Shown piece after piece: positions 12,739 to 60,290 of a stretch of DNA of 64,000 nucleotides (the first letter of the stretch is position 1; the number at the start of each line of letters is the position of its first letter). The stretch is from contig CAVTDE010000007.1 of assembly GCA_963733455.1 (NCBI GenBank), forward strand, positions 44,854-108,853, written 5' to 3'. The notes below the pieces were generated by a model. It was not told the DNA's origin. It saw only the letters and a list, made by a program, of their open reading frames with translations, and ran no database searches. This DNA comes from an uncultured Bacteroidales bacterium. Lineage in GTDB: Bacteria; Bacteroidota; Bacteroidia; Bacteroidales; VadinHA17. The translations under genes and the position numbers were made by a program.

Positions 12739-12812
12739 TCTGGTTTTTTCAAAATTTGAAAAAGTAAATGACCGGGTGGTGATAATTAAATAATAACTAT
12801 GCTACTCCGCTA

Positions 12813-13033: not shown

Positions 13034-13063
13034 AGTAAAATAAGCAGCCATAATAAATATAAA

Positions 13064-13342
13064 ATGAGTATTACACTAAGTAAACTGATACCTGTAATTG
13101 GGTTGACTTTATTAACCTCCTGGTTATCCGGACAGTCTGACATCAATAAAGTATATACCCTGAAATATGAATATGAAGGCTTAAATTCCGCAGTTGGATC
13201 AGTTGCCGGAGCATCTTCTAAAGACAGTCTGGATGTATGCTACATGATCTGGTTTCTGAAAGGCTACACCGCCAATCAATGCCGGAGGCATTTAATTCCA
13301 ATAGCCACGGTTACGCCCGTGGTACTGAGAACTGATAAATAA
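13064..13342 (+). CDS. Short signal-peptide ORF, possibly the truncated 5' end of a secreted-protein gene
   Basis: MSITLSKLIPVIGLTLLTSWLSGQS signal. The last ~22 codons are encoded by repeat copy 2, so the C-terminus is repeat-derived. Confidence 0.35.
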   Translation: MSITLSKLIPVIGLTLLTSWLSGQSDINKVYTLKYEYEGLNSAVGSVAGASSKDSLDVCYMIWFLKGYTANQCRRHLIPIATVTPVVLRTDK

Positions 13343-13405
13343 CACAACCCCGGAGTGGGTTGAACATATTTAGGTTATAAGATATTTTCTCGTCATAATC
13401 AACAG
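13274..13405. repeat. About 130-bp direct repeat, copy 2
   Basis: Same sequence as 12813-12943, with a few substitutions and a 1-nt indel. It retains the last transposase codons (SVDYDEK) out of frame. Confidence 0.85.
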
Positions 13406-13540
13406 ACATAACAAACATTTTTGCTTATTATTCAGCACTTTACTAAATTTATAAAAAATTTCTAACCATGCCAAGTCTCGAAATTAATGTTGATTTTGCA
13501 AGGTTCAGAGGCGCTGTTCATTTTTTGTTGACTTTTATTA

Positions 13541-15673: not shown

Positions 15674-15851
15674 TACGGAGAAGAGAAGAATTTAATAATC
15701 TCATAGTGCAGCAATTTAGTTTTTTAACTCAACCCATCGCTGTAGCTAAAAAGTGATTGAACTGACAAAGAGCATAGGGTTAGCACAGGTATAATATTCG
15801 CATTATGGACAATACTTTTCTCTTTTTATGTAACAAATTCCCGCTATCAAC

Positions 15852-24228: not shown

Positions 24229-24622
24229 ATTATTGATTTAATTTTGTGAATAAATTTTCACATGACAAAGGTGATGTCATTTCTAAGCAGATGTGTTGTA
24301 CATTTAAAGGGAAGAGTTGTCTTTTTCACACATTTACCAAAAGTTATAATGAAAGTCTGCTATTAAACTTGCTATGCATCTATAATGGTTAATTAGCAGT
24401 AACCGTATATAAGTAAATGAATAGGAAAGATATAACTCTAAAATTTACTTCAAATCTCAGTGGAAAATCGTTGAAAAAAAACTAACGCATCGAATTAAAG
24501 GGATAAAGGATACTGAAGCCCACGGCAAATCCTTTTTTTGCAAATTCATAAATAGTAGCGATATTAGTACCACTAACGAGCGGATATAAAAAAACTCAAT
24601 GTCGGACAAAATATTTCTTAAT

Positions 24623-29586: not shown

Positions 29587-29841
29587 TTAGGATAAGTTAT
29601 TTCTATTATCTGGCACACACCAGCCTTCGTCTTCCGGACAGATCGACCAGGATTCCACAATCCCCCACTGGCTGTAAGGTCCCCAGTGCATCAGTAACCC
29701 GAATTTAATATCCTGCCATTGATCTATTCTTGTTTGAATCAATGGATTAGGATCAGGAACATAGATCTGTTCATTGTGTTGGGCAGATACTCTCATTACT
29801 GACAGGGCCAGAATAAAGAAAAGAAGTTTTTTTGATTTCAT
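29587..29841 (-). pseudogene. N-terminal remnant of a GH29 alpha-L-fucosidase
   Basis: Signal peptide plus RIDQWQDIKFGLLMHWGPYSQWGIVESW, the GH29 N-terminal block. It stops after 84 codons and no continuation appears in any frame before the next gene. Confidence 0.6.
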
Positions 29842-30157: not shown

Positions 30158-30473
30158 GGCATAGCCGTCAACTTAAGGAATAGGATACCTTATGAATCAA
30201 ACTGTATGCAACTGAGTTGCAATTATTTACATTTGGGATTGTTGAAAAAGTCTTTCTTAACCGCAAAGCACGCAAAGAAGGCGCAAGGACACAAAGTTAA
30301 AAAGTTAATAATTAGCTCTTTGCGTGCCGATAGCTATCGGCATTTGCGTAAATCCTTCGCGATCTTTGCGGTTAATGGATTTAGACTTTTTAAACACCTC
30401 AAACTTATTTAATTGTATTTCTGCTAAATATAATTCTCAGTTTAAAACTGATTCTTAAGTTGACGCCTCTGCC
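30158..30473. mobile_element. MITE-like palindromic intergenic element, full copy A
   Basis: Terminal inverted repeats are GGCATAGCCGTCAACTTAAG and CTTAAGTTGACGCCTCTGCC (17/20 complementary). Inner inverted TTAACCGCAAAG...CTTTGCGGTTAA, arms built of CGCAAAG-like 7-mers, and a 16-bp perfect palindrome GCCGATAGCTATCGGC. An inverted near-copy lies at 54578-54832. Confidence 0.65.
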
Positions 30474-30678: not shown

Positions 30679-32169
30679 ATGAAAAAGAACGAGAAGACAA
30701 GAAGCCTAAAAGGGAAGAGTCTGTCGAGACGGAATTTCATCGGCACAGTTGGTGCGGCATCAGCTGCATTTACCATTGTCCCGCGTCATGTTTTGGGTGG
30801 AACCGGATATACTGCACCCAGCGACCTGATTAATATTGCAGGAATTGGAGTCGGAGGTCGTGGGGCAAGTAATATACGGGCAATAAGCGATCCTGATGAA
30901 ATTGTACAACCTCAAAAAATAAAATATGAAGACGTAATTCCTGCTCCGGCACAAAACGACACCAGATCGCAGGTAGCAAGAACGCCTATCAAGCTCGCGA
31001 ACATATATGCTTTATGTGATGTGGATGAGGAGAGAGCAGCTAATACATATAAAGGTTATCCGAAAGCGAAGATTTATAAAGATTTTCGGAAGATGCTTGA
31101 AAGAGAAAAATCAATCGATGCAGTCGTTATAAGTACACCGGACCATACTCATGCTGTTGCCTCCATGATGGCAATCAAAATGGGAAAGCATGTGTATTGT
31201 GAAAAGCCTTTAACTCATACGGTATATGAAGCCCGTGAATTGGCCAGGGCCGCAAAAGAAGCCAAAGTAGCCACGCAAATGGGTAACCAGGGGATGGCAT
31301 ATGATGCCAACAGACAGCTTAAGGAATGGCTTTGGGATGGAGCTATTGGTCAGGTACGTGAAGTGCATGCCTGGTCCAATCGTCCTATCTGGCCACAGGG
31401 TATTGAACGACCTGTGGATACTCCCCGTGTGCCTGCAACGCTCGACTGGGATTTATGGCTTGGACCATCTCCCTATCGACCTTATAATCCAGCCTATGTG
31501 CCTTTTGCCTGGAGAGGCTGGTTTGATTTCGGAAGTGGAGCCATAGGTGATGAGGCTATTCATAACCTTGCTCCGGTATTCACCTCCTTAAAACTAACCG
31601 CGCCCACACGCGTTCACGGAAGTTTTACACCCATCTTTCCGGAAACATTTCCACTTGCTTCTTTGCTTCACTTTGAGTTTCCGGCACGGGATAAAATGCC
31701 CCCGGTAACAGTTCATTGGTATGACGGAGGTCTCCTGCCCCAGAGGCCAGGCGAGCTTGATGCTGATGCTGTTAATGGTGTTTACAGTACAGATGTGCCT
31801 GATTGGGATAAAGCAAACGGAGTAATTTTTGTCGGTGACAAAGGTAAGCTCCTTTCACGTGGGGAAGGGACAAGAACACTAAGGTTCATACCTCAATCAA
31901 GGATTAATAATTACAAGCAGCCGGCTCAGACCTTACCACGTTCTATCGGGCATCACAAGGAATGGATCGAAGCTTGCAAGGGCAATGGAACAACTGAATC
32001 TGATTTCAGCTTTGCCGGGCTATTGACCGAAGCATGTCAACTCGGAAATATCTGTTTGAGAACAGGTGGTAAGGCAATCGAATGGGATTCGGCAAACTTT
32101 AAAATTACCAATAATGAGGAAGCGAATAAACTTCTTCATTTCGACTACCGCGATGGGTGGAGCTTATAA
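30679..32169 (+). CDS. Gfo/Idh/MocA family oxidoreductase with Tat signal
   Basis: LSRRNFIGTVGAASAAFTIVP, IAGIGVGGRG, VYCEKP. The ATG at 30679 is preferred over the TTG at 30637. Confidence 0.9.
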   Translation: MKKNEKTRSLKGKSLSRRNFIGTVGAASAAFTIVPRHVLGGTGYTAPSDLINIAGIGVGGRGASNIRAISDPDEIVQPQKIKYEDVIPAPAQNDTRSQVARTPIKLANIYALCDVDEERAANTYKGYPKAKIYKDFRKMLEREKSIDAVVISTPDHTHAVASMMAIKMGKHVYCEKPLTHTVYEARELARAAKEAKVATQMGNQGMAYDANRQLKEWLWDGAIGQVREVHAWSNRPIWPQGIERPVDTPRVPATLDWDLWLGPSPYRPYNPAYVPFAWRGWFDFGSGAIGDEAIHNLAPVFTSLKLTAPTRVHGSFTPIFPETFPLASLLHFEFPARDKMPPVTVHWYDGGLLPQRPGELDADAVNGVYSTDVPDWDKANGVIFVGDKGKLLSRGEGTRTLRFIPQSRINNYKQPAQTLPRSIGHHKEWIEACKGNGTTESDFSFAGLLTEACQLGNICLRTGGKAIEWDSANFKITNNEEANKLLHFDYRDGWSL

Positions 32170-32435
32170 GGAATAATGGGAAACCCTGCGGTCAGCCCTT
32201 TATTGATAAACTAGCAAATCATGAAGTTTGGCCTGAAAAAGGTTTCAAAATCAGGTCATGATAATTAGCATAACCCTGAACGCAATATCCATTCTCTCAA
32301 ACTGTTTATAAATTATCCTGAATTCCTCTGGAATTGTATAGGCCTGCCCCAGCTCAGGAATAAGAATAAGACATTGTTGACAACATTTGTCAAAAACAAA
32401 GGATTAAGACAGTTCTAATTCAAACATTTAACCTG

Positions 32436-33305
32436 ATGTCCAAAGGTGCTCATATTACTTATCTATGCGTTTTTGTTGCCGTAATTTTAATTGTCACTAT
32501 TACCGGTGCTTATTATGGTAGTTCATATTATACGGTCAGCCTTGAGGATAGGTTCTATCACCCTGATAATAAAAGCCTTAAACCAAGTGGTTATATTGGT
32601 CACAGCATGGGAATTATGGGATCTATTTGTATTATCAGCGGGGTTGGATTATATATGGCAAGGAAAAGATATCGATTTTTAAACCGGGTCGGGAAATTGA
32701 TGTACTGGCTTGAATTTCATATCTTCATGTGTATCCTGGGAACAATAATGGTTGTATTTCATACAACTTTCAAGTTAGGCGGTGTAGCTGGTATTAGCTT
32801 TTGGAGTATGGTCACAGCCCTGGTAAGCGGAGTAGCAGGGCGGTTCATTTATCTTCAGATCCCCAGGACAATTGAAGGCCGGGAGCTTGACCTTAAAGAA
32901 GTAAGGGAAATTCGAAATGACATTCTTTCGGAAATCAGGGATTCCTACAGTATGGATGAAGAAACTTTTAAATACATTTCATTTTCAATTGAAAAGAGAT
33001 CAGTAATTTACATTGAAAACAGGCATCCCCGGTTTTTGAAGAAGTCGAGGGATGACAGGAAAACCATCCACAAAATTAACAGTTTCCTCAGGCAAATTAA
33101 ATTGTCACGGTCCAAACGGTCACAGATAATGGCTCTTGTTAAGAATGATATAAGACTTGAGAGAATTTTGGAGCGGCTTGAAAGGATGAAAAACCTCTTC
33201 CGGTACTGGCATGTTTTTCATTTTCCCTTTACCATTGTAATGCTGATATTTCTGATAATACATGTGATGATAATTGCAGCCCTGGGTTATGCATGGAACT
33301 TTTAG
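32436..33305 (+). CDS. Integral membrane protein with two H-x13-H helices (possible b-type heme binding)
   Basis: 5 predicted TM helices. EFHIFMCILGTIMVVFHTTF and VFHFPFTIVMLIFLIIHVMI each carry His pairs 14 positions apart. A charged cytoplasmic coiled segment lies between them. Confidence 0.6.
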   Translation: MSKGAHITYLCVFVAVILIVTITGAYYGSSYYTVSLEDRFYHPDNKSLKPSGYIGHSMGIMGSICIISGVGLYMARKRYRFLNRVGKLMYWLEFHIFMCILGTIMVVFHTTFKLGGVAGISFWSMVTALVSGVAGRFIYLQIPRTIEGRELDLKEVREIRNDILSEIRDSYSMDEETFKYISFSIEKRSVIYIENRHPRFLKKSRDDRKTIHKINSFLRQIKLSRSKRSQIMALVKNDIRLERILERLERMKNLFRYWHVFHFPFTIVMLIFLIIHVMIIAALGYAWNF

Positions 33306-33307
33306 TT

Positions 33308-34640
33308 ATGGACCATACAATTTTCAAAATATTGTTTTATTGCTTTGCGGCATTCCTGAGTGCCTGTGTGATAATTCTTTACCTGCGCAGAAAGGCAAAG
33401 CAGTCAAAAATAACAGACGAGAAGATTGAAAAAGCTCTGGAAAATGGCCTTCATGAACCGGTTTCACTTTATCCGCATGTCGACATTAACAGTTGCATCG
33501 GTACAGGTGCATGTGTTAAAGCATGTGTTGAAAAAGACATACTGGGAATTAAAACATGGAAAAGCAGTAATTATAAATGCTGCCCGGTGTATAGGTCATG
33601 GAGCATGTTTCCATGCATGTCCCACTCACGCGATCTCCTTAAAGATCGGCACCGAGAAACGGGGTGTCGAACTCCCTCATGTCAGCAAAACCTTTGAAAC
33701 CAATGTCACTGGCATATTCATAGCCGGAGAGCTTGGCGGAATGGGTCTCATAAAAAATGCTGTCGAGCAGGGGAGACAAGCCACGGAAAACATTATCAGG
33801 TCGCTGAAAAAGGGACATGGCGCGGATTATGATATCATTATAGTAGGGGCCGGTCCGGCAGGCATATCAGCATCCCTTACCGCAAAAAAGAATGATGTCA
33901 GATTCCTCCTTCTTGAACAGGATTCCCTTGGTGGAACAGTCTATACCTATCCCCGTAAGAAAGTAGTAATGACTTCACCAATGCATCTGTCGCTTATAGG
34001 CAAAATAAAATTGTATAAGACAAGCAAAGCAGTTCTTCTGGATCTTTGGAAATCCGTCCTCTCCAAATACAATATTACTGTCCATGAAAACTGCAAAGTG
34101 GAATCGATTATCAGAACGAACACTCATATCGAGGTGATCACATATGACAATCAGATTTACAAAACTGCTTCTGTTTTGCTTGCAATAGGGAGGCGCGGAA
34201 GCCCACGTAAGCTTAATGTACCTGGCGAATTGAAGGAAAAGGTCGCTTACCGGCTCCTCGAACCTGAGGGTATCAAAGGCAAAAATATACTGATAGTGGG
34301 AGGCGGCGATTCCGCAATTGAAACTGCATTGCTGCTTGCTGATGAAAATCATGTAACAATTTCCTACAGGAATGAGGTTTTTAACCGTATCAAACCTGTT
34401 AACAACATTGCGATTAACAAAGCAGCGGCTGAAGGGAGGATAGAGTTAAGGTTTAATACAAATCTCATCAAAATAGAGGATGAAATCATAACTCTTTCTT
34501 CATGTACTGATGGCAGGAATTTAAACCTAAGAAATGATCTTGTATTTATTTTTGCCGGAGGTGAATTACCTACCCAGTTCCTTGAAAAAACGGGAATTCA
34601 GGTCACAAAGAAATTCGGCGAAACAATAATGAAACACTAG
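33308..34640 (+). pseudogene. Membrane-anchored ferredoxin-like plus FAD/NAD(P)-binding (pyridine nucleotide-disulfide type) oxidoreductase, 1-nt frameshift
   Basis: ORF 33293..33697 (TM helix plus CIGTGACVKAC) and ORF 33426..34640 (CIGHGACFHACP, IIIVGAGPAGISA, ILIVGGGDSAIE) join as ..DILGIK|HGKAVIIN.. at the A4 run 33551-33554. The span is 1333 nt (3n+1). Confidence 0.75.
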
Positions 34641-34708: not shown

Positions 34709-34960
34709 TTTCTTATCTTCGATCTCTTTCTTTTTAGGAACCACACAAAACCTCCCTGACTTTCAGCTATGGGCAGTCCCTCCTTCACTGCAGTTCGGCG
34801 GACAAAGTGTAGGAATAGAAGTATACTCCTTTCCATAATTAAAATTAAAATATCGATATTTGATTGATCAATTTATGGAAAAGACGAGGAATCTCAGATA
34901 ATCAGTACCCAACGAAAACCGGCAACTCTGACAACTGACAGGATTTAAACCCTTATATCG

Positions 34961-35860
34961 ATGAAAAACCTATTCATTTTCAGTCTCCTTTGCTTACCTG
35001 TTCCGGCCCATTCTGCCACAGATGGAGAGCCGGCCCTAAATGATCAGATTGAAACCAGGGACAAGGTCGCCCACAATCAGGAAATTTACAAAACGATTGA
35101 TACATTCAAACTTAAGATTGATATCTTTTATACAAACCAATCGTTTGGAAGAGAGAATAATACAGCCATTGTTTTCTTTCATGGAGGGGGGTGGGCTTTT
35201 GGCACACCGGGTGAGTTTTTTACAACCTGTGAACGATATGCGAAAATGGGGATTGTGACTTTTTCGGTAGATTATCGTCTGTCAATTGAAAATGGGATAA
35301 CCCCACATAAAACGATCAGCCCGATCGAATCTGTAATGGATGCAAAATCAGCCATGCGCTGGGTCCGGGAAAATGCCGGAAAATTCCACATTGATAGAAA
35401 TAAAATAGTTGCTGCCGGCCAATCTGCAGGAGGTCACCTGGCATTATGTACAGCTATGATTGATGATTATAATGAAAAATCAGATGACCTGAGTATAAGC
35501 TGCTGCCCGGATGCTATATTGTTGTTTTCAGCATGTGTAAATGCAGTTGAGGGCTGGTGCGACCGTTTGCTGGCTGATCGAAGAACTAAAATATGGAGTA
35601 TCTCTCCGGCACATAATATAAAAGCAGGATTACCTCCGATGATTGAATTTCATGGTACGGATGATGAACAGGTTCCTAAATGGACCGTTGAGTTTTTTGA
35701 AAGCGACATGAAAAATAAAGGCAATTATTTTGAACTGCATATGTTTGAAGGAAGAAAACACTATCTGGGTGATGGGAACCCAAAGTATTCACGATACTAT
35801 GATGATGAAATACTTAAGATTGCAGATGATTTTCTACAAAAACATAATCTCCTGGACTAA
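34961..35860 (+). CDS. Alpha/beta hydrolase (esterase/lipase, HGGG type)
   Basis: FFHGGGW oxyanion motif, GQSAGGH nucleophile elbow and a signal peptide. Confidence 0.85.
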   Translation: MKNLFIFSLLCLPVPAHSATDGEPALNDQIETRDKVAHNQEIYKTIDTFKLKIDIFYTNQSFGRENNTAIVFFHGGGWAFGTPGEFFTTCERYAKMGIVTFSVDYRLSIENGITPHKTISPIESVMDAKSAMRWVRENAGKFHIDRNKIVAAGQSAGGHLALCTAMIDDYNEKSDDLSISCCPDAILLFSACVNAVEGWCDRLLADRRTKIWSISPAHNIKAGLPPMIEFHGTDDEQVPKWTVEFFESDMKNKGNYFELHMFEGRKHYLGDGNPKYSRYYDDEILKIADDFLQKHNLLD

Positions 35861-35990
35861 TACTCAAATAATCGGGCTTCAATGCCCGGGCATATGCTTT
35901 GTGATATAAAATTAATCTTAAATTTGTTTATTAAGAGCCAAATTTTATACAGCAGATCTCTTTTGTATCCACACATAAAAATTTTCAACT

Positions 35991-40566: not shown

Positions 40567-41814
40567 TTAAAGTTTCAATCGTATTCCCGACCTGATCAAA
40601 ATACCTGTAATAATCACACACAACAATGCAAATAAAGCGGATTTCACCAAACCGATGCCTCCTGTCAATATAACATCAGGTAAATGTATATCAAATAATT
40701 GTGTAGTTGCATAGGCAAAATATGGTATCAGATAACAAAGCAGGGTCGCTTTTCCTGCTGGCTTTATCACGTCAAACCATTTTGCTTTGCCCATTACATC
40801 TACAACCCAGTATACCGCTGTGAACGTCAGGATAGTAAAGGCACTGCAAAGGAATAACCATGCCGGGGTAGCTCCGAGCTTTGCCAATCCCCAATAAGGC
40901 CGGGTAACAATTGATAAACCAATCAGAATAGCCGAGAATACGAGGAATACCAGGGTCAACTTTTTATTATCCTTGCGCTTCACAAAATATTGGAATATTA
41001 AAGAAGTAAGCACGCCTCCCATAGTAAGGCCTGTAAGTGTACCTCCCCGGATCGCATCGGGTATATACGAAATTAGACTTTCGCGGGGAATGAGCACTGC
41101 TTTGGAAACCATACTTAAAATACAAAAAAACACCCACCCTGCTAATATTGCATAAAAATTGTTCTTTGAATAAATGGTAATCAGTCCGCTAACCAGGTAT
41201 GCCCATCCGATCAATCCCAATATACCCCACCACTGGGGTGCAAAGTGTTGAATATTACCATCTTCACCGCCCCTGTAAACAATACTTAAAGTTATTAATG
41301 TTATGATGCCAATCACCCTTGCAATCCAGACCAGATATTTATTCGAGGATGTGGGATAACTGTTCCATATCAGGATAAAGGATAAACAGCAAAGTGGATT
41401 CCAAAGATATTCTGCCATACCGGTCGCACTGGCATTATAGGTTTCCCCATTAACAAGGAATACTCCCATTACCAGAAGCGCTATCGTTCTAAGTAACACG
41501 TGTTTTACCAGCTGCCAGTTGGTATCGCCCTTTATTCGCCTGTTATTGATGGCAAAAGGGATGGATAATCCGACAATAAACAAAAATGCCGGAAAAACAA
41601 CATCGGCCAGACCTATTCCATCTACACCCCTTTCAACATGCTCCAACCATCCGGGTATATTCTTCAACGACCATAAGTCATTCACGAAAATCATCAGTAC
41701 CATTGTAAGCGCCCGGAGTATATCAATGGAGGCTATACGTTGAGTAGTTACCTGTCCTGCTTTATCATACAGATTTTCTTTAACCGGAGAAGGCGAAGTA
41801 TTCATTTGTATCAT
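40567..41814 (-). CDS. DUF5009 / heparan-alpha-glucosaminide N-acetyltransferase-like membrane acyltransferase
   Basis: RIASIDILRALTMVLMIFVND block and about 10 TM helices. Confidence 0.75.
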   Translation of the reverse strand: MIQMNTSPSPVKENLYDKAGQVTTQRIASIDILRALTMVLMIFVNDLWSLKNIPGWLEHVERGVDGIGLADVVFPAFLFIVGLSIPFAINNRRIKGDTNWQLVKHVLLRTIALLVMGVFLVNGETYNASATGMAEYLWNPLCCLSFILIWNSYPTSSNKYLVWIARVIGIITLITLSIVYRGGEDGNIQHFAPQWWGILGLIGWAYLVSGLITIYSKNNFYAILAGWVFFCILSMVSKAVLIPRESLISYIPDAIRGGTLTGLTMGGVLTSLIFQYFVKRKDNKKLTLVFLVFSAILIGLSIVTRPYWGLAKLGATPAWLFLCSAFTILTFTAVYWVVDVMGKAKWFDVIKPAGKATLLCYLIPYFAYATTQLFDIHLPDVILTGGIGLVKSALFALLCVIITGILIRSGIRLKL

Positions 41815-41889
41815 GGTTATAGTCTGTTAATTGAATAAAGTTATATCCCAGTACCCGGAAAATAAATTGTTTTTGATTCATTTCTGTTC

Positions 41890-43439
41890 TCAGGTGACAG
41901 GTCCCGGATTAAATAACACCAGATCATTATGTAATCCTATTTTATCACAGGCAACTTGTTTTTCACCGCTGGCGACATTTAAAATCAAATGAAAGAGTTC
42001 CCATCCCATTTCTTCAATTGTTTTTTGTCCCAGCGCTACCTGTCCTGCATCAAGATCAATCAAATCAAACCAGCGACTACTCATCTTTGAATTTGATCCA
42101 ACTTTTATTACCGGCACCATAGACAATCCATAAGGAGTTCCCCGGCCGGTCATAAAAACGTGGACATTCATCCCCGAAGCCAGTTGTAATGTTCCACATA
42201 TAAAATCGCTGGCAGGCGTGGCTGCAAAGGTCAATCCTTTTTTCCTGATCTTCTCGCCGGGGGCCAACACATCCACAATATGGCTGGTTCCTGATTTTGC
42301 TATTGATCCAAGAGCCTTTTCGACAATATTACTTAATCCTCCGCTTTTATTCCCGGGTGTCGGATTGGCACTCCGGTCCGAATCTCCTTTAAAAAGGTAT
42401 TCATCATACCATTTCATTTCATTTATAAGGGCTTGTCCGACTGATGAATTTATTGTTCTTGGAACCAATAAATGGACTGCATCCCTTACTTCCGTTACTT
42501 CAGAAAACATAACGCTTCCACCTGCACGAACAATTAAATCTGCAGCAAATCCTGCAACCGGATTTGAAGTAATCCCGGAAAAGGCATCACTCCCTCCGCA
42601 CTGCATCCCTACTATTAATTCTGAGGCAGGAACAATTTCTCTTTCCCGTTTATTAAGTTCTTTCAAATGCTCTTCAGCCAATATCATTGCCCCTTTTATC
42701 ATATCATTGAATCCTTTAAAGGATTCATCCTGCATCTTCATAACATTTGAAACATAGTTCCATGAGGTCTCTGATGATTGATCTAATTCAGGAAGAAGTT
42801 TATCCGGTAACAATTTCTCGCATCCAAGTCCGATAATCAAAATTCTTCCGCCAAAATTCGGATTCCTGGCAATGTTTTTTATTGTCCTTATCGGAATGAC
42901 AGCCCCCGGAGCATTAATTGCCACACCACATCCATAGTATGATTCAAAGGTATCACATCATCCACTCTGGGATACTTTGGCAGTAATTCATCTTTTATCT
43001 TTTTGGCAACATAACTGGTAAAACCAGTGACGCAATTGACAATGGAGGTAATCCCCAGAATATTTTTTGTCCCTACGCTGCCGTCAGGATTGCGAAAACC
43101 TTTAAATACATAACCTTCCAATGGCTGTGACTCAGGCTTCGGATTAACAGCTAACGGTATGGAATCCAGATCAGGTGGTTGCGGAAGAGAAACCAGGGAT
43201 TCCCGGACCCATTCTCCACGCCTGATCAGTTTGTTCGCATAACCGATTACCTGGCTGTATCTGATAATTTTATCGCCACCATATATATCATTTAAAGCTA
43301 CTTTGTGCCCGATCGGGACATTTTCAGATAACTGTGTGCCATCTTCAAGAATAGTCCCTCCGGGTAATCCGTTAAGATTGACCACAATCCCGACGTTATC
43401 TGCTTTCGCTCTTTTAATTATTATTGGTTTCTCCGGCAT
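41890..43439 (-). pseudogene. garD: Galactarate dehydratase (GarD, UxaA family), 1-nt frameshift
   Basis: Collinear with my recollection of E. coli GarD over the full length (NVGIVVN..GHKVAL..IIRY..VIGYA; [11 protein letters not shown]; TEVRDA; [24 protein letters not shown]; FNPGPVT*). The two ORFs (42888..43439 and 41890..42924) overlap in different frames inside the conserved [14 protein letters not shown] block near 42930-42940. The span is 1550 nt (3n+2). Confidence 0.85.
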
Positions 43440-43477
43440 TTTATATTATATTATCAACCAATGACATACACTACATT

Positions 43478-44383
43478 CTATTTCAATAATCCCATTTCTA
43501 TCAGAACTTGCCTGAGCTTTGCCCTTTCGTCATCTGTCATAGGCCCAACCGGTCCCATGCAGGGACCGGCTTCGATCCCCAACATAATAAGGGATTCCTT
43601 AATAACCGCAGGAAAGGTACCAAGTGTAAAAGCAATCCTGAGAGGAGCCAGAGTGAACTGTGCCTTTAAGGAGCCTTTTAAATCCCCGGCAATGAACTTT
43701 TCATAGATATCTACGCACAACTTTGGTGCAACGTTGGCGCACGATGCAATAGAGCCGGCAGCGCCATAGCAAAGTGCACCATAGATCAGAGTGTCGCGCC
43801 CCATCAGTACTGAAAAATCGTCCATGTGCCGGGTTAATCGAATATATTCGGCAGTCACAGTCAAATCGCCTGAGGAATCCTTAATACCGACAATATTTGG
43901 AACTTCAGCCAGTTTTGCTACTGTTGCCGGGGCAAGGTTTACTGATGTTTTTGGGGGATTGTTGTAAAGTACTATTGAAAGACCTGTGTTTTCTGCAATA
44001 GTCCGGTAATGCTTAATCAATTGATCCTGAGAAGGTGAAATAAACATTGGTGTTAAAATGGAAACCGCGTCAACCCCGCATTCTTCTGCTAATTGGGTCA
44101 GCATCACTGTTTCGCGGGTTGTGATACCATTTGTTCCGGCATAAACAGGTACCCTTCCTTTAGTCTCATCCATTGTGATACTAAAGATTTCGCGCTTTTC
44201 TTCAGGTGTCAGCCCGTAAAATTCGCCCGTTGTCCCAACAACAAACAGACCATGCACACCTCCTTCAATCAGGTAATTTAACAATTTGCGCATGGCTTTT
44301 TCGTTGAACTTACCCTCATCGGTGAGAGGGGTTATAACTGCGGGGATTATGCCTTTCGGTTTAAATCCTGTTTTCTTTCCCAT
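43478..44383 (-). CDS. Dihydrodipicolinate synthase/N-acetylneuraminate lyase family (class I aldolase/dehydratase) protein
   Basis: GTTGEF, YNNP, and IVGIKDSSGD (Schiff-base Lys context). 301 aa and intact. Confidence 0.85.
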   Translation of the reverse strand: MGKKTGFKPKGIIPAVITPLTDEGKFNEKAMRKLLNYLIEGGVHGLFVVGTTGEFYGLTPEEKREIFSITMDETKGRVPVYAGTNGITTRETVMLTQLAEECGVDAVSILTPMFISPSQDQLIKHYRTIAENTGLSIVLYNNPPKTSVNLAPATVAKLAEVPNIVGIKDSSGDLTVTAEYIRLTRHMDDFSVLMGRDTLIYGALCYGAAGSIASCANVAPKLCVDIYEKFIAGDLKGSLKAQFTLAPLRIAFTLGTFPAVIKESLIMLGIEAGPCMGPVGPMTDDERAKLRQVLIEMGLLK

Positions 44384-44435
44384 TATATTATTTGTTATCT
44401 TTTATTTAATCCAAAGGGCTGTCTCTTAATTCTAC

Positions 44436-44563
44436 TTAACCGCAAAGTTCTCAAAGTTGTCGGAAAGTTCGTAAAGTTAAGATACTTATTTACTATTCTT
44501 TGCGATCTTAGGTTTGAAATCATAGCGTGCTTTGCGGTTAATGGATTTTGATTCTTTAAACAG
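44436..44563. repeat. Short copy of the TTAACCGCAAAG...CTTTGCGGTTAA palindromic element
   Basis: ttaaccgcaaagttctcaaag...gtgctttgcggttaatggattttgattctttaaaca. It lies between the gudD stop and the DHDPS-like start. Confidence 0.7.
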
Positions 44564-44577
44564 GATTCTATTAAATT

Positions 44578-45925
44578 TTAACGAACAAGGCAAGGTCTCT
44601 TATTGTCAAATTTCCATCCTGGTATCAGGTATTGCATGGCCATGGAGTCGTCCCTTGCCCCAAGTCCTTTTTCCATATAAAGTTTATTTGCTTTTTCAAT
44701 TTGATCCATATCAATTTCAATTCCCAGACCTGGTTTGTCAGGTACAGAAATCATTCCGCCAGTAATTTTAAGAGGTTCTCTGGTTAAACGTTCCTGTCCT
44801 TCCTGCCAGATCCAGTGTGTATCCAAAGCAGTAATTTTACCGGGTGCTGCAGCCCCGGCATGAACAATCATTGCAAGCGATATATCAAAATGATTATTGG
44901 AATGTGAACCCCATGTTAATCCCCATTCCTGACAAATCTGGGCAACACGTACCGCACCCTGCATTGTCCAGAAATGCGGATCGGCCAATGGAATATCTAC
45001 CGCATGCAATTGAATTGAGTGTCCCAGCTGACGCCAGTCAGTAGCGATCATATTTGTGGCTGTCATCAGGCCTGTTGCCCGCCTGAATTCTGCCATTATT
45101 TCACGTCCTGAGTAACCATTTTCCGCACCGCAGGGGTCTTCTACATAGGCAAGTATATCGTGCTTATTCCTGCATAACTTTATAGCCTCATCAAGCGACC
45201 ATGCTCCATTAGGGTCTATCGTGATCCTGGCATCGGGAAAACGATCAGCGAGTGCAACCACCGCTTCCATTTCCTTGCTACCGCTCATTACCCCGCCTTT
45301 CAGCTTAAAGTCTTTAAAACCATAGCGTTGTTGAGCCGCTTCTGCCAGCCGTACAATTGCTTCAGGGGTCAGGGCAGCTTCACTCCGCAATCTTAACCAG
45401 TCATCCTTGTGATTTGAGGTGTTCAGATATGGCAAATCGGTTTTTTTGCTGGTCGCCAATATAAAATAAATAGCCAAGCATCTCCACCTTTTGACGCTGC
45501 TGGCCTGTGCCAAGCAAGGCGGCAACAGGAACACCAAGGAACTGGCCAAGAAGATCCAGTAATGAAGTTTCAAGTGCTGTTATGGCATGAATAACAATTC
45601 GTAAATCGAAGGTCTGTAATCCACGCCCCCCGGAATCCCTGTCACCAAACTGTTTTCTGACATCGTTAAGGATATCATTATAAGAACCTATAGATTTGTT
45701 AATTACAAATGTTTTTGAATCTTCCAGAACCTGCCGGATACGATCTCCTCCGGGAACTTCACTTACACCTGTGTGTCCGGCATTATCTTTTAAAATTACA
45801 ACATTCCTTGTAAAGAAAGGGCTATGGGCACCGCTAAGGTTAAGCAGCATGCTGTCGTAGCCGGCAACCGGGATCACCAACATTTCAGTTACCACCGGTG
45901 CTCCTTTAAAATTCTCCATGTCCAT
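44578..45925 (-). pseudogene. gudD: Glucarate dehydratase (GudD, enolase superfamily), 1-nt frameshift
   Basis: Near-collinear with my recollection of E. coli GudD (FKLKGGV..., [100 protein letters not shown]). ORFs 45401..45925 and 44578..45573 switch frame at the T7 run 45441-45447. The span is 1348 nt (3n+1). Confidence 0.9.
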
Positions 45926-45954
45926 ACGATTTTTAGAAATTCTGATTCTCTAAT

Positions 45955-46143
45955 TTGTGATCTCTGATCTCCGTGCTCTGCGTCCTTCGCTCTGCGCTCT
46001 CTGCTCTGGCTCTACCTTCGCTCCTCCGGTAGCTCGGTGGCAATGCTGTGCCCCACCTTCGCCTCCCTCCGGTCAGCTTCGGTGGGCAAAGCCTGTGCCC
46101 TGTGCTCTGTGCTCTGTGCCCTGTGCCCTTCGCCCTGCGCCCT
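45955..46143. repeat. Strand-asymmetric pyrimidine-rich 7-mer repeat tract between gudD and garR
   Basis: Five tandem CTGTGC[CT] units at about 46091-46127, preceded by ctctgcg/cttcgct-type 7-mers. GGTGG...CCACC...GGTGG allows alternative hairpins. The track ORFs here read like translated repeat. Confidence 0.7.
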
Positions 46144-47032
46144 TTATCGTCTGACTTCAACTTTTGCTAGTTTTTCGTAGTACCGGACAATGCTTCCATG
46201 GTCATTTTCTCCCAGACCATCAACCTTAAGTGCCTGCAAAATTTCCATTACTGCTGATGTAAGCGGTAAGGGGACGCCGATTTCATGCGATGTATCCAAT
46301 GCATTGCTCAAATCTTTGATATGCAGGTTTATCCTGAATCCGGGATTAAACTTTCTGTCCATCACCAATGGTGCCTTTGCATCCAATACGGTGCTTCCGG
46401 CAAGCCCGCCTCTTATCGCCTGATAAACAAGCTCGGGTTCAACACCGGCTTTAGTTGCCAAAACCAGCGCCTCCGACATTGCTGCTATATTAAGGGCTAC
46501 AATAATTTGATTTGCGAGTTTGGTAACATTACCGGCGCCAATACTACCGGTATGTACTACCGAACCGGCCATAGCTTTAAGGATGGGATAGCATCTGTCA
46601 AAAACATCTTTTTTACCTCCTACCATAACCGAAAGAGTGCCGTCAATTGCCTTTGGTTCACCTCCACTTACCGGAGCATCCAGCATTTCCACACCTATTC
46701 CTTCAAGTTTTTGGTATAATTCCCTGCTTACGATTGGAGATATTGAGCTCATATCAATAAATACAGAACCGTCTTTTAAACTCTCCAGCAATCCGTTTTT
46801 TCCAAGCACAACTTCTTTAACATGTGGGGAATTAGGCAACATTGTAATTATAAACTCACATTTGGCTCCAACTTCTTTGGGATTTGTAGCTCTTCTCAGC
46901 GCCCATGGAAACAAGTTCGTCCATGGAGCTTTGATTTAAATCAAGTATAACTAGTTTGTATCCTGCCTTTAAAAGATTTTTAGCCATCGGTTTACCCATG
47001 ATCCCCAAACCAATAAATCCTATTTTAAACAT
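46144..47032 (-). pseudogene. garR: 2-hydroxy-3-oxopropionate (tartronate semialdehyde) reductase GarR, 1-nt frameshift
   Basis: ORF 46144..46914 matches my recollection of E. coli GarR almost residue for residue in places (ITMLPNSPHVKEV, DAPVSGGEPKAIDGTLSVMVGG, AGNVTKLANQ.IVALNIAAMSEAL.LATKAG, YYEKLAKVEV.R*). The Rossmann N-terminus MFKIGFIGLGIMGKPMAKNLLKAGY starts at the ATG at 47032 in another frame. The junction is near 46889-46900. The span is 889 nt (3n+1). Confidence 0.9.
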
Positions 47033-47070
47033 AATGTGTCCTCCTGTTATTTTGTATTAGTGTCGTCTGA

Positions 47071-48414
47071 TTATATCTTCTTAAGTTCAAAACGCTGAAT
47101 TTTCCCCACAATAAATACATAACTTACAATTGCCAGAAATGCATGAATGCTGACAAAAACCAGTGCCCAGCTAAACGAACCTGTAACCTTGATTATGTAA
47201 CCAATCGCTATCGGGGTTATAATGCTTGATAGATTTCCAAAGGTGTTAAAGAGGGAACCGCTTAACCCTGTGATTTCCTTAGGTGCTGTGTCGGCATTGA
47301 CCGCCCATCCGAGAGCTCCGACTCCCTTGCCAAAATACGATAATGCCATAAATGCAATTACAATCCATTCAACAGCAGTATAATTGCAGAAAATCATGCT
47401 CATGGATAATAACATACCTGTAACAATAGGCACTTTTCTTGCAACCGAAAGTGAATTGCCTTTTTTAAGCAGATAATCTGAGAATATACCTCCAAGATTC
47501 CCTCCGACAAAACCAAAAATTGCAGGTAATACGGCAACTATTCCGGCTTTAAGAATAGTCATTCCCCGGTCCTGAACCAGATAAACAGGAAACCAGGTAA
47601 TGAAAAAAAATGTAATGGCATTAATGCAGTATTGAGCAATATAAACACCTATAAACATACGGTTTTTTAAAAGCTGTTTAAGAAAGCGCCATGCCGGGGC
47701 ATCGTTAACAACTTTATTGTTTTTAACTCCATGGTCCATTTCAACAAGGGCTCCACCATTCGTAATATACTCCAGTTCTGCCTGATTAATGTATCGTGAT
47801 TTCTTTGGTGCATGAATATACTTTAGCCAGAAGATCAGAAAAATAAAACCTACCGACCCCATGAACATAAATGAATACTTCCACCCATAGGTGTGAACGA
47901 TATATCCTAACAGGGGGGCAAAAAGCACTGTCGCAAAATATTGGGCTGAATTAAATATAGCAGCTGCCGTACCTGTTTCTTTTGAAGGGAACCAGGCAAC
48001 CGTAATTCTGCTGTTTGCCGGAAATGCCGGTGCTTCGGCTATACCCAAAAGGAACCTTAAAATGAATAGAGCAACAACTGCCGAAAAACCAACAAGGAAA
48101 CTCGTAAAACCCGTTATAAATGTAAAAAAAGACCATACGAAAAGACTGATAGCATATATTTTCCTCGATCCAAAACGGTCCAGAAGCCATCCTCCGGGAA
48201 GTTGCGCCAGGACATACGACCAACCGAATGCTGAAAAAATATATCCCATTGACACGGAATCCAAATGCAGGCTCTTAGCCAATGCAGGACCAGCAATTGA
48301 AAGAACCGTACGGTCTGCGTAATTTATTGCCGTTGCAAAAAAAAGTAAACTCACAATGACCCAGCGGAAATTACTTTTCTTTGATTCTTCCATTAACTGG
48401 TTCTTAGAGGCCAT
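47071..48414 (-). CDS. MFS transporter, anion:cation symporter type (glucarate/galactarate permease-like)
   Basis: 12 TM helices. INYADRTVLSIAGP block as in GudP/GarP/DgoT-type permeases. Operon context. The ATG at 48414 is preferred over the longer track ORF. Confidence 0.85.
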   Translation of the reverse strand: MASKNQLMEESKKSNFRWVIVSLLFFATAINYADRTVLSIAGPALAKSLHLDSVSMGYIFSAFGWSYVLAQLPGGWLLDRFGSRKIYAISLFVWSFFTFITGFTSFLVGFSAVVALFILRFLLGIAEAPAFPANSRITVAWFPSKETGTAAAIFNSAQYFATVLFAPLLGYIVHTYGWKYSFMFMGSVGFIFLIFWLKYIHAPKKSRYINQAELEYITNGGALVEMDHGVKNNKVVNDAPAWRFLKQLLKNRMFIGVYIAQYCINAITFFFITWFPVYLVQDRGMTILKAGIVAVLPAIFGFVGGNLGGIFSDYLLKKGNSLSVARKVPIVTGMLLSMSMIFCNYTAVEWIVIAFMALSYFGKGVGALGWAVNADTAPKEITGLSGSLFNTFGNLSSIITPIAIGYIIKVTGSFSWALVFVSIHAFLAIVSYVFIVGKIQRFELKKI

Positions 48415-48528
48415 TTCGATATATTTGGTTTGGTTCGGTTTCTCTGTAATTAGTGAACTCAAAAATAGAGTTTTTATTAACGCTCGGGTCTCCACCGGGC
48501 AATTTTTTAACGTGCGGCCCCCCGGAGT

Positions 48529-48660
48529 GCATAGGCGTAAAGCCTTCGCGACCTTTGCGGTTAATGGATTTGGACTTTTTAAACAACCCTAATGTAAATT
48601 ATTGTTGCTCAGTTGCATTCAGTTTAATTCATAAGCTATCCTACTACTTAAGTTGACGCG
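48529..48660. repeat. Half copy (one arm plus terminus) of the MITE-like element
   Basis: gcataggcgtaaagccttcgcgacctttgcggttaatggatttggactttttaaaca...cagttgcattcagttt...cttaagttgacgc closely matches the left arm of copy A (30158-30260) read as its reverse complement. Confidence 0.7.
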
Positions 48661-48747
48661 GATGCACCCGTGGGGGTTTGGGGAGTGTCCGGATAATTCG
48701 ATCCCTGGGGAGGGAATAAATAAACCGGAGGTAAGCGGACCTCTGTT

Positions 48748-50853
48748 TCACTTTTTAATCACCTTTACCGATTTCCGGAAATTACCATTGTAAACAGTGA
48801 CTATATAAACTCCGGGGGGGATATCACCGGTCTCAACTACTGTCATATACCGGCAATTGGCTATTTCTTTCAGCAGTTTGCCATTAGCCGAGAAGAATAG
48901 CAATGTATAATTATCCTCATTGCTGAGCGCCACATTGAATTGATCGCCGATAAGTGTTGGCCAGACAAAAATATCAGGCTCACCGGAATTAGTTTTCCTT
49001 TTGATATAGACATATATGTTATTGCTTGTCACAGTCCCGCAGGTCCCTTTTACAATCACCCGGTACAGTCCGGTATTGCCGGCGTTTAAATTCTGCATGG
49101 CAAATTCAGTTCCGGTTGCATTGTTGAGGCGAGTGCTGTCTTTTTCCCACTGATAGCTCAGATCATGCCCTGCAGCGGTGACATTAAGTTTAATTGCTCC
49201 ACCAAACGCGACCTCCGAATCAGGAGTTAAACTGGTTATTGCGGTAAGCGGAAGGACAGTAAGATTAATCGGGAGGGAAGTCGCCGATCCGCACGATCCG
49301 TTAATCTTGGTTATGTAGATTCCGGAATTGTTCACCCTCGTACTGTTCAGGTTAACCTCATTTGAAGCACCCGATTTCAAAAGTGTGTCATTCCTGTACC
49401 AGGAATAGTTAAGATTGTAACCTTCCGCATTCACATCGATTACAAGCGGCTTTTCTGCACATAATATTGTATCCCCCGATTGTCTGAGGATATTTGTGAG
49501 TCTTGCAATATGAACACTCAGTACGGACCAGTCTGATAACGAATTATTATGTGTTACTCTGAACATTACATATACTTTGCCTGTAAAAGATGCATTCCAG
49601 TTTGCAGTTGCCTGACCGGATGTACCGGAAATACTTCCTGCACTTGTGGGAAAGAGCTGCCATTCATAAGCAGTAGCTCCGGTTACTGCACCCACACTAT
49701 AACTGCTTGTTGAAATTCCCTGGCATACGATCGAATCACCTGTAGGTGCCGGAGGAGTAAATGATATTTCAACGCCGGTTTTGGAAGTGATCCAAGAATC
49801 AAAAAGTGAAACGCGGGTATAAGCCCCATAGGTATCGCATCTGCTGCTCCCCCAGCTTACAATTCCTCCCAGCTTAAATTCGTTATAATATGGCACTACC
49901 AATGGACCTCCGCTATCGCCGTTGCAGGCATCCTTCCCGCCATTAAGGTAACCTGCCATCAGGTCAGTGGAAGGAATATCGGGCCATACAGTCGATGCCT
50001 GTGTATTTGAAATCAGGGGCAGCTGTACCTTTTGAAGAGTTTTTGGTAAAGTTTGGGGATTGACCACGGTCAGTCCGTAACCGGTAACCCATGCAAATAC
50101 TCCGGGGTCAGTTAGTCCTGCAGCAGCATCCCTTGCTGATACAAGTTTTATTGGTTTGGCATTTGGGTAATTTATTGTCTGTGTTAATTTCAGGAGAGCA
50201 ATATCATTTGCAAGGGTACTATGATTGAAGTTTTCATTTGCTATTACCTGGCTTACCAGATATTTCTTACCCTCAAGTCCGCTGACCGGATTATTTGCAC
50301 CGACAATGACTTCCATGCTGGCTGCCGGTACCGGATTTCCTGCATCATCTATGGTGCAATGGGCGGCCGTTAACACCCAGTCACCACTTATGATTGTTCC
50401 CCCGCAGTCAAAATTTCCGGCACGAAGGTAAACCTGCCATGGAAAATTTGAAATATCCGTACTTGTCCCTCCCGTAATCTTACTTTCTTCCTGAAGGATA
50501 CCGGTAAAAAAATAAAAGAAATGATCCCCCGGACCAATGTCAGAATTAATAAGAAGGACAGGTTCATTGTTGATGTATAACCTGTAAAGTGATGTATCAG
50601 AATTATATACAGCAGATACTGATATTTCAAGCCGGTACCTTTTATTGGCTTCAAGAACAAAAGGGATGGAATCATCCCGGAAATACTCATTACCCTGAAA
50701 GACAGGATTGTACTGCTCATCAAGCACAAGCCATTGTGATTCTGCAACATTTTTTGTTTTCACCATATGGACGATAACCTTCTGAGAAAACAGGGAGAGT
50801 GAGAAAGCCCAGATAAACGCGACCAGCAGAGTTCTTTTCATAACATTAGTCAT
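48748..50853 (-). CDS. Secreted trypsin-like (S1) serine protease with Ig/PKD-like repeats and a T9SS C-terminal sorting domain
   Basis: WVLTAAHC (His), DIALLKL (Asp), GDSGGPL (Ser). Repeated Y.W..D modules. The C-terminal ~80 aa (VWPTLIGDQFNV...GVYIVTVYNGNFRKSVKVIKK) is T9SS type-A-like. Confidence 0.9.
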   Translation of the reverse strand: MTNVMKRTLLVAFIWAFSLSLFSQKVIVHMVKTKNVAESQWLVLDEQYNPVFQGNEYFRDDSIPFVLEANKRYRLEISVSAVYNSDTSLYRLYINNEPVLLINSDIGPGDHFFYFFTGILQEESKITGGTSTDISNFPWQVYLRAGNFDCGGTIISGDWVLTAAHCTIDDAGNPVPAASMEVIVGANNPVSGLEGKKYLVSQVIANENFNHSTLANDIALLKLTQTINYPNAKPIKLVSARDAAAGLTDPGVFAWVTGYGLTVVNPQTLPKTLQKVQLPLISNTQASTVWPDIPSTDLMAGYLNGGKDACNGDSGGPLVVPYYNEFKLGGIVSWGSSRCDTYGAYTRVSLFDSWITSKTGVEISFTPPAPTGDSIVCQGISTSSYSVGAVTGATAYEWQLFPTSAGSISGTSGQATANWNASFTGKVYVMFRVTHNNSLSDWSVLSVHIARLTNILRQSGDTILCAEKPLVIDVNAEGYNLNYSWYRNDTLLKSGASNEVNLNSTRVNNSGIYITKINGSCGSATSLPINLTVLPLTAITSLTPDSEVAFGGAIKLNVTAAGHDLSYQWEKDSTRLNNATGTEFAMQNLNAGNTGLYRVIVKGTCGTVTSNNIYVYIKRKTNSGEPDIFVWPTLIGDQFNVALSNEDNYTLLFFSANGKLLKEIANCRYMTVVETGDIPPGVYIVTVYNGNFRKSVKVIKK

Positions 50854-54577: not shown

Positions 54578-54832
54578 TTAAGTTGCAGGTAAATAACTTG
54601 GGGCTGTTTAAAAGGTCTAAATCCATTAACCGCAAAGATCGCGAAGGATTTACGCAAATGCCGATAGCTATCGGCACGCAAAGAGCTAATTATTAACTTT
54701 TTAACTTTGCGTGCTTTGCGCCTTCTTAGCGTCCTTTGCGGTTAAAAAAGGCGTTTTCAACAACCCCAATTTTATTTTAGAATAGCAGACCTCTTCTTAC
54801 GAAAAAAACTCTTAGGTTGACGGTCTATGGAG
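54578..54832. mobile_element. MITE-like palindromic element, copy D (inverted relative to copy A)
   Basis: The core 54625-54745 is a near-exact reverse complement of 30257-30375, including GCCGATAGCTATCGGC. It ends in ctcttaggttgacggtctatgg, resembling the CTTAAGTTGACG terminus. Confidence 0.65.
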
Positions 54833-59054: not shown

Positions 59055-60290
59055 TTATTTATTGCCAATGCAATACAGGTGCTGATATCCCCGGATATAT
59101 ATTTTCCCCCTGCTGATTGCCGGTGAAGCATTCATTCTTTCACCAATAGAGTTTTTTGCAACATACTCAAATCTGGGGCCTGGTTTAATCACGGTTATCA
59201 CACCGTCATCATTAGGCATATAAACCAGCCCGTTGGCCAGAACAGGTGAAGAGTACTGCATGCCAAGGTTTTTCACCCAGAGGATATTTCCGGTAGCAGC
59301 TTCAATGCAATTAACCTCGCCAGTTGTCATTGTTGTAAACAGATAATCATCGGTACAAACAGGCGAAGGAACATAATATGCACCTTTTCTTGACTGCCAT
59401 ACCACATGACTATTAGTAACATCACCCTGTCCATCGGGTTTTACCGCTACAAGATTGCGAACAGGCCAGGCACTGCTTACAAGTACTAATCCTGATTTTT
59501 CATTATAGACAGGACTGGAACAAAAGTCTTCGGAAGGGCCATTTACGAACCAGTATCGCGAACCATCGCCGGGATTGTAGGAAGCAATTTCTTTGTTGCC
59601 ACAAAAAATCATCTGCATCTTTCCTGCCATTTTCCTGAATATAGGAGTGCTGAAACTGTGCGCCGGTCTTTCGTGAGAAACTTTCCAGATTATGTGGCCG
59701 TCGGTTCTGCTAAGAGCTGCGACAAATGAATCTCCCTGACTATCACCATTAATTATGACTTTATCTTCAAACAGCACCGGTGAACAACTGTAACCATGAG
59801 GACTTAAGAATGTGCCGGGTCGCTGCAGCCAGACCTGTTTTCCTGAAAAGTCATACGCTCCCACAACAATATCCTTACCATCCAAAAAAGACACATAAAC
59901 CCTTGTGCCATCTGTAGATGGTGTACCTGAAGCGAAACTGTTGTTATCATGCTTCTGTTCAAACGTGGTTTTGAGTACAGTTTTTTTCCATAAGAGGTTG
60001 CCGTTAACTGTGTTATAACAAAGGAGAACTTTTTCCTGAGTTGCAGGAAAAGCTGTAGTCAGGAAAATCTTATCATTCCACACTATCGGTGATGAATAAC
60101 CTGTGCCCGGTACCGTAATTTTCCAGACCACGTTCGTGACTGAATCCCACTTAACGGGCAAATTGATTTCTGAACTTGTCCCGTCCCCGTTCGGGCCGCG
60201 CCAGCAAGGCCAGTTTTGGGCTTGTGTGACAGATATGGTATCAGCAATCAGCAACAGTAGAAATATATTCAAAAATCTGAGGTTGTTCAT
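59055..60290 (-). CDS. PQQ-like beta-propeller repeat protein, secreted
   Basis: Signal peptide followed by NWPCWRGPNGDGTS and repeated ..G..LW. blades. Confidence 0.8.
   Translation of the reverse strand: MNNLRFLNIFLLLLIADTISVTQAQNWPCWRGPNGDGTSSEINLPVKWDSVTNVVWKITVPGTGYSSPIVWNDKIFLTTAFPATQEKVLLCYNTVNGNLLWKKTVLKTTFEQKHDNNSFASGTPSTDGTRVYVSFLDGKDIVVGAYDFSGKQVWLQRPGTFLSPHGYSCSPVLFEDKVIINGDSQGDSFVAALSRTDGHIIWKVSHERPAHSFSTPIFRKMAGKMQMIFCGNKEIASYNPGDGSRYWFVNGPSEDFCSSPVYNEKSGLVLVSSAWPVRNLVAVKPDGQGDVTNSHVVWQSRKGAYYVPSPVCTDDYLFTTMTTGEVNCIEAATGNILWVKNLGMQYSSPVLANGLVYMPNDDGVITVIKPGPRFEYVAKNSIGERMNASPAISRGKIYIRGYQHLYCIGNK

Follow-up and report, generated by a model that had tools for sequence, protein, structure and literature searches.

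The closest described counterparts of the locus examined here are the gudPXD, garPLRK and garD genes of Escherichia coli, among whose products GarL is an HpcH-family aldolase. We analyzed a 64,000-nucleotide stretch of DNA from an uncultured Bacteroidales bacterium (contig CAVTDE010000007.1, positions 44,854 to 108,853; hereafter the window), which carries an ordinary D-glucarate/D-galactarate catabolic operon of five genes, all on the minus strand and in the order MFS-garR-gudD-DHDPS-garD. As in E. coli, the locus encodes GarD, GudD, GarR and a galactonate/glucarate-type MFS permease. It differs from the E. coli system in that all genes lie in a single operon, in that a DHDPS/NAL-family class I enzyme stands in place of GarL, and in that a glycerate kinase gene was not seen inside the operon. 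Three of the genes, garD, gudD and garR, are each broken by a frameshift. An earlier sequence-only reading considered that this pattern would fit relaxed selection after loss of the pathway, with sequencing error as the alternative. We find instead, with a probability of roughly 0.78, that the three frameshifts are collapsed-haplotype consensus artefacts of a Nanopore-only Flye/Medaka assembly and are absent from the real cells.

Two described situations are relevant for comparison. In the genuine decay of operons in host- or niche-restricted bacteria, several genes of a dispensable catabolic operon are likewise hit by small indels. Such decay is expected to be accompanied by nonsense mutations, larger deletions, insertion sequence (IS) insertions and a ratio of non-synonymous to synonymous divergence (dN/dS) approaching 1, and in these respects it differs from the present locus, where none of them was seen. 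The second situation is that of long-read assemblies with collapsed strains. The MFD long-read catalogue is Nanopore-only and was produced with Flye and one Medaka round (PMC12313526); Flye merges strains of ~98.65% identity into one consensus (PMC8302730), and residual indels in long-read-only assemblies fragment gene calls (PMC9262707). In likeness to such assemblies, the lesions studied here occur only in locally heterogeneous segments, and the same-species contig that we used for comparison has a Flye-style name and an ENA ERZ deposit like those of the MFD loci. The errors treated in these papers are mainly homopolymer or low-coverage indels, whereas those in this operon include +1 insertions that juxtapose both alleles of a single-nucleotide polymorphism (SNP). 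We did not find this pattern described in the three papers cited above and propose it here from the sequences.

Results

Single-base lesions in garD, gudD and garR

The operon and the segment surrounding it comprise the following features, with divergence given relative to the same-species sister contig described below.

47071..48495, minus strand: MFS permease, D-galactonate/glucarate transporter subfamily; intact open reading frame (ORF) with its likely start at the Met at 48420; TIGR00893 459.7 bits (cut-off 395)
46144..47032, minus strand: garR, 2-hydroxy-3-oxopropionate / tartronate semialdehyde reductase; two ORFs in different frames, span 889 nt
45926..46143, no strand: G+C-rich spacer between garR and gudD, 218 bp, with 7-nt repeat runs (GCACAGR, minus strand) at both ends
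44578..45925, minus strand: gudD, glucarate dehydratase; two ORFs in different frames, span 1348 nt
43478..44383, minus strand: DHDPS/NAL-family class I aldolase or dehydratase-like gene; intact ORF
41890..43439, minus strand: garD, galactarate dehydratase; two ORFs in different frames, span 1550 nt
41979..48250, no strand: sharp-edged block of high divergence; window and sister contig show 223 mismatches here (3.5%)

The ORF listing, direct reading of the sequence and alignment all confirmed that garD, gudD and garR each fall into two overlapping ORFs with the spans given above, as the sequence-only reading had described, and the ORFs likewise bore out its statement that the DHDPS-like gene and the permease are intact. 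Nucleotide alignment with intact orthologues showed that each of the three broken genes carries exactly one 1-nt indel. After repair of this single base, the genes encode ORFs of 516 (garD), 448 (gudD) and 295 (garR) amino acids, which are the lengths of the orthologues, with no other stops.

In garD, one base is missing between 42938 and 42936, where the window reads CATA-CTAT and orthologues read CATACCTAT or CATACTTAT. The deletion sits on the polymorphic third position of an ACC/ACT codon. At this site the sister contig reads TAT GAC TAT, which may be merely another allele, given that a related locus (L003) reads TAT TCC TAT; we considered that the sister might share the deletion and compensate for it by an insertion, and dropped this as over-reading. 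In gudD, the lesion is an extra A at 45450, within GACC[A]GCAAAAAAAC (GACC[A]GC), three bases upstream of an A7 run. The sequence-only reading had placed the join at this run (the T7 run of the forward strand, 45441-45447), which proved incorrect: the run is unchanged, and because the sister contig keeps an identical A7 run with an intact frame, we rejected an error in homopolymer length as the cause. A query with a fragment across the gudD site, made for short-read evidence, recovered the fragment of the window itself at 100%, all other matches being at <=91%. In garR, one extra base lies at 46891-46893 within GAGAAGAGCT (46897-46888). Homopolymer length is altered at none of the three lesions.

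Comparison with a same-species sister contig

A search with the repaired GudD protein gave a single match at 97% identity (P0003), located on ERZ25039545:contig_41814 (262,717 bp). The two top matches (P0001 and P0002) were irrelevant E. coli-like gudX-gudD fusions. We extended this sister contig through exact look-ups with proteins that the two genomes share without any change, such that the alignment covers window positions 1-12996 and 15768-61388. It is the only same-species assembly that spans the operon and is itself a long-read metagenome contig. Protein scans with the DHDPS-like enzyme in genome contigs and JGI metagenomes found nothing closer than 88% amino-acid identity, and exact look-ups of the window's DHDPS-like protein, GudD N-terminal fragment (P0121) and GreA-like protein in the gene-position index, which seems to lack the window's own contig, gave no match.

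The operon flanks are ~99.5-100% identical to the sister. Flanking genes contain 0-9 mismatches each, except for an esterase gene (34949-35860) with 31, compared with 29-67 mismatches for each gene of the operon. The edges of the divergent block (~41979 and ~48250) coincide with the ends of the operon, and the block contains every frameshift difference of the operon. The sister operon is fragmented too, with the MFS gene in four pieces and garR and garD in three each. This fragmentation involves six one-base insertions private to the sister, at window positions 48069, 47687 and 47326 (MFS), 46565 (garR), and 42709 and 42382 (garD). The sequence-only reading had suggested inspecting sister genomes at the three sites, on the premise that intact frames at all of them would point to assembly error. 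The outcome was divided: the sister is in frame at the gudD and garD sites of the window, with an intact GudD, and it shares the garR insertion.

Frameshifts cluster in divergent segments

We compared the window and the sister over 58.4 kb, including 50.1 kb of coding sequence, using 500-bp bins; divergent bins account for 25% of the coding total. Of 21 coding frameshift differences, 19 fall in divergent bins (P = 4e-10) and just two in the other 37.7 kb of coding DNA. The clustering of lesions noted in the sequence-only reading is thus real, and stronger than had been claimed. The extra base is in the sister in 19 cases and in the window in two. The remaining indels outside the divergent blocks are found between genes, where real evolutionary differences would be expected. 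In addition, the operon flanks in the window are matched at 99.95-100%, without indels, by Logan contigs from ERR10755943 that are presumably short-read. The scarcity of coding frameshifts outside the divergent blocks, together with these matches, indicates that both assemblies are accurate in general, except in locally divergent segments. Another two contigs of this species from Logan stop ~196 bp past a trypsin-like gene, that is, at the edge of the operon, which is consistent with a branching assembly graph at this point.

The same combination of features was observed in a gene unrelated to the operon. The DUF5060 gene (window 10844-12637, plus strand) is intact in the window, encoding 598 amino acids, and lies in a block of 3.7% divergence. 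The sister copy (L055 7690-9040) contains ten one-base insertions and is stop-free once these are corrected, with a synonymous divergence (dS) of 0.136 and a dN/dS of 0.125. A third same-species assembly (L056, ERZ25039513) carries mixed indels in this gene, and dN/dS across the comparisons is 0.09-0.125. Ten frameshifts combined with a dN/dS of 0.125 cannot describe a real gene.

Two further divergent blocks, both sharply delimited, were observed. One corresponds to the esterase gene (plus strand; dS 0.125, dN/dS 0.10), and the other, at 24000-25000, extends over the 5' end of a glucuronyl-esterase gene and the adjacent intergenic region. Only one coding indel was found in these two blocks, at a start codon (24227), and divergence alone is therefore not always accompanied by frameshifts.

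Operon genes show purifying selection

The rates of synonymous and non-synonymous change do not support the suggestion that selection on the operon has been relaxed. Between the window and the sister, the operon genes have a dS of 0.05-0.20, which is 5-10x that of the flanking genes (0-0.037), and a dN/dS of 0.06-0.19. The DHDPS-like gene has a dS of 0.148 and a dN/dS of 0.09, and garR a dS of 0.137 and a dN/dS of 0.12. After indel correction, no nonsense codons are present in either operon copy, and no larger deletions or IS insertions were seen alongside the ~10 operon frameshifts. The usual marks of pseudogenes (dN/dS near 1, nonsense codons and larger lesions) were hence not observed, and orthologue lengths are all kept. 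For garR, gudD, the DHDPS-like gene and garD, 29 of the 47 amino-acid differences use residues known from orthologues of other species. Since dN/dS is low, nonsense codons are absent and the surplus divergence is synonymous, the operon copies are better described as older alleles under purifying selection than as decaying genes. The shared garR lesion also fits poorly with inheritance: the insertion is flanked on both sides by mismatches at a distance of 5-6 nt, and if inherited it would predate the split of the alleles, which conflicts with the dN/dS of 0.12 that garR has maintained since.

Inserted bases juxtapose known alleles

We examined the eight operon insertions (six private to the sister, the window's gudD insertion and the shared garR insertion) against the orthologues. 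In all eight, two different bases stand where the orthologues have one polymorphic column that carries both. For example, AA[A][G] corresponds to the alleles AAA and AAG, TT[T][C] to TTT and TTC, GC[T][G] to GCT and GTG/GCG, and G[T][C]T to GTT and GCT. The gudD site of the window, GAC[C][A]G, corresponds to the alleles CGN and AGG, and the shared garR site, GAGAA[G][A]GC, to AAG and AAA. Six of the eight insertions are not slippage-like. In a positional simulation, the pattern arose by chance with a probability of 0.40-0.55 per site and ~1e-3 jointly. An insertion in the DHDPS-like gene of a related long-read locus (L050) has the same two-allele form.

Frameshifts in related operons are associated with the sequencing technology

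When the intact DHDPS-like protein was searched against species-representative genomes, twelve loci were recovered, mostly from metagenome-assembled genomes (MAGs) of uncultured Bacteroidales at 80-88% amino-acid identity; several of them keep the gene order of the window with all genes in a single frame. The gene order MFS-garR-gudD-DHDPS-garD is conserved and unbroken in many uncultured Bacteroidales contigs. In ~36 JGI metagenome contigs and in MAGs with k141_/k121_ contig names, which we took as a sign of short-read assemblers, the operon genes are in single frames with one exception (garR of L042). Private frameshifts were found in the MFD/ERZ long-read loci L007, L012, L049 and L050, as well as in the window; L050 and L012 are fragmented by short-homopolymer deletions. 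The ORF fragments of the window are recorded from 'NCBI, ENA' on a 281,254-bp contig, and this deposit pattern matches that of the MFD long-read MAGs. Based on the deposit pattern and the nearest relatives, we infer that the window derives from a Nanopore assembly.

In three loci from genome contigs (L006, L008 and L009), DHDPS-like genes of 80-86% identity lie with operon neighbours on contigs binned as Nitrospiraceae, Desulfosporosinus and Bacillota. These reflect either horizontal movement of the operon or mis-binned contigs.

Gene identities and the intergenic spacer

Protein identities were scored on frame-corrected translations against NCBIfam cut-offs, at equivalog level for GarD, GudD and GarR and at subfamily level for the permease. 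Corrected GarD scored 830.5 bits with TIGR03248 (cut-off 730.85) over model positions 3-507 of 507. Corrected GudD, a member of the enolase superfamily, scored 830.8 bits with TIGR03247, barely over the cut-off of 828.7, and covers model positions 3-441 of 441. Its translation contains FKLKGG, DPNGAW, VEDPCG, TATNMI and SNNHFDIS, and hence the conserved motifs KxK, DPNGAW, EDP, ATNMI and SNNHFD, which we take to have catalytic roles. Corrected GarR scored 528.2 bits with NF008592 (cut-off 397) and 436 bits with TIGR01505 (cut-off 340.75). With the three corrected proteins over their equivalog cut-offs, the gene identifications of the sequence-only reading were upheld. The DHDPS-like protein passes only the generic dapA model (221.6 bits, cut-off 206) and is far under the cut-off for KdgD, 5-dehydro-4-deoxyglucarate dehydratase (TIGR03249; 139 bits against 373.95). 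On the basis of these scores, its predicted product is assigned at the level of the DHDPS/NAL family only.

The spacer between garR and gudD (45926-46143) is G+C-rich within a window of otherwise ~41% G+C, and its 7-nt repeat runs occur nowhere else in the window. It is strongly indel-variable between the window and same-species assemblies. No Rfam element was found in 41500-49000, spacer included, and no tRNA in the 64-kb window.

Other strain differences in the window

Of the five frameshifts that the sequence-only reading had counted in the window, four were verified, in a comparison covering window positions 1-12996 and 15768-61388. The fourth is an extra T at 33547 (AAT[T]CCC) that splits a Pyr_redox_2/Fer4 (4Fe-4S) gene (33293-34640, plus strand), which is an intact 448-aa ORF in the sister. 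This lesion may be a plain consensus error or, alternatively, a real mutation specific to the strain. A suspected gene split at 8672-8708 turned out to be two genes with overlapping stop and start.

Several structural differences were also observed. At window positions 29608-29631, there are 22 bp in place of ~911 bp in the sister (composite 31642-32552), and a 273-aa fragment of an alpha-L-fucosidase is encoded in the additional sister sequence. The difference has the appearance of a genuine deletion or a remnant of a gene, in other words of real decay beside the artefactual kind. A ~180-bp repeat occurs at 30233-30411 and 54590-54769, with 92% identity to the copy in the sister contig; it has inverted repeats at its termini (TTAACCGCAAAG...CTTTGCGGTTAA) and resembles a small element of the miniature inverted-repeat transposable element (MITE) type. 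Finally, window 12996-15768 and sister L055 4924-7210 differ in structure: the sister has an IS200-like Y1 transposase gene here, and a 7TMR-DISM/SpoIIE gene that is intact in the window (13532-15673) is present only as fragments in the sister.

Discussion

We propose that the operon is the only segment of its neighbourhood with several alleles in the sequenced material, either as strain haplotypes or through reads recruited from related Bacteroidales, whose operons would encode proteins 80-90% identical. At a SNP between two populations of reads, the consensus may keep both bases, which would give a +1 insertion, or keep neither, which would give a -1 deletion; in both cases the frame would be broken without any other damage. 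Two observations bear on this proposal. The coding indels are, with two exceptions, confined to segments of raised synonymous divergence between same-species assemblies, and the inserted base and its neighbour represent the two alleles of a polymorphic site in all eight operon insertions. The breaks of Logan contigs at the operon edge provide an indirect hint that mixed reads may underlie the divergent block.

Several points weigh against this explanation. The garR insertion is common to two assemblies from different samples, for which a shared real mutation would be simpler than a repeated artefact; this objection is countered by the low dN/dS of garR and by the mismatches close to both sides of the insertion. 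The two-allele pattern is often produced by chance at a single site (0.4-0.55), because the outgroups are diverse. The divergent blocks at 35000-35900 (esterase) and 59500-60000 are without indels. Not every lesion fits a merging of alleles, since that at 33547 is slippage-like (TT from T) and lies in a non-divergent region. Finally, the sequencing platform of the window is deduced rather than taken from a stated record, and we infer, rather than see, mixed haplotypes in the window's own sample.

It is unlikely that the lesions are real, very recent pseudogenes in strains that are losing glucarate/galactarate catabolism through independent frameshifts under relaxed selection. Decay of this kind would account for the clustering of frameshifts in one operon in two same-species assemblies with clean flanking genes, the garR lesion is shared as an inherited mutation would be, and the ~55 non-synonymous differences in the operon leave room for a short recent neutral phase. 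However, a dN/dS of 0.06-0.19 and the absence of any nonsense codon, larger deletion or IS among ~10 frameshifts argue against it, and the elevated divergence, being synonymous, is not a product of relaxed constraint. The garR lesion would have to be older than an allele split (dS 0.137) across which purifying selection on garR persisted. Moreover, in 19 of 21 coding indel differences it is the sister that has the additional base, and most of these lie outside homopolymers, whereas bacterial indel spectra show the opposite pattern. The same syndrome also affects the unrelated DUF5060 gene, with ten insertions at a dN/dS of 0.125, and operon frameshifts are confined to long-read assemblies with the sole exception of L042 garR. 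A slightly less probable version holds that the lesions are real and record parallel inactivation of different operon genes among strains, atop a recent replacement of alleles across the whole operon. If true, this would imply active selection against the pathway, beyond drift, in an uncultured soil or sediment Bacteroidales species caught in the act of losing this catabolism.

The sequence-only reading kept homopolymer or indel sequencing error as its alternative. Error is indeed favoured, but not in its homopolymer or random form; the lesions are better read as local consensus errors linked to a segment with several alleles. Gene-fragmenting indels are a known feature of long-read-only assemblies (PMC9262707), L050 and L012 are broken by deletions in short homopolymers, and the window's own lesion at 33547 resembles this type. 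Nevertheless, that three such ordinary errors fell in the operon by chance is very improbable: homopolymer length is changed at none of the three sites, only two coding frameshifts occur in the 37.7 kb outside divergent blocks, and the association with divergent segments is strong (P = 4e-10). A last possibility is that the cells do carry the frameshifts but still produce the proteins by programmed recoding, through ribosomal frameshifting or transcriptional slippage. Under this reading, the shared frameshift of garR would be compatible with purifying selection on the gene. We regard it as scarcely credible, as no site has a slippery heptamer or long homopolymer, no Rfam element was found in the region, genomes of one species differ in the sites affected, and all orthologues are single-frame. 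We know of no precedent for recoding in three enzymes of one operon together with three sites in the sister permease.

If the three frameshifts result from haplotype collapse, the consequences lie mainly in quality control. Frameshifts in Nanopore-only MAGs would be non-random and can pile up in conserved, horizontally shared or multi-allelic operons, where they imitate pathway decay and distort metabolic reconstructions and pseudogene counts. Cheap flags that require no reads are a +1 insertion juxtaposing SNP alleles, locally raised dS and low dN/dS. For the biology of this bacterium little is at stake, since the operon encodes a standard sugar-acid pathway; judged from its sequence, it is probably functional and most likely intact in the cells.

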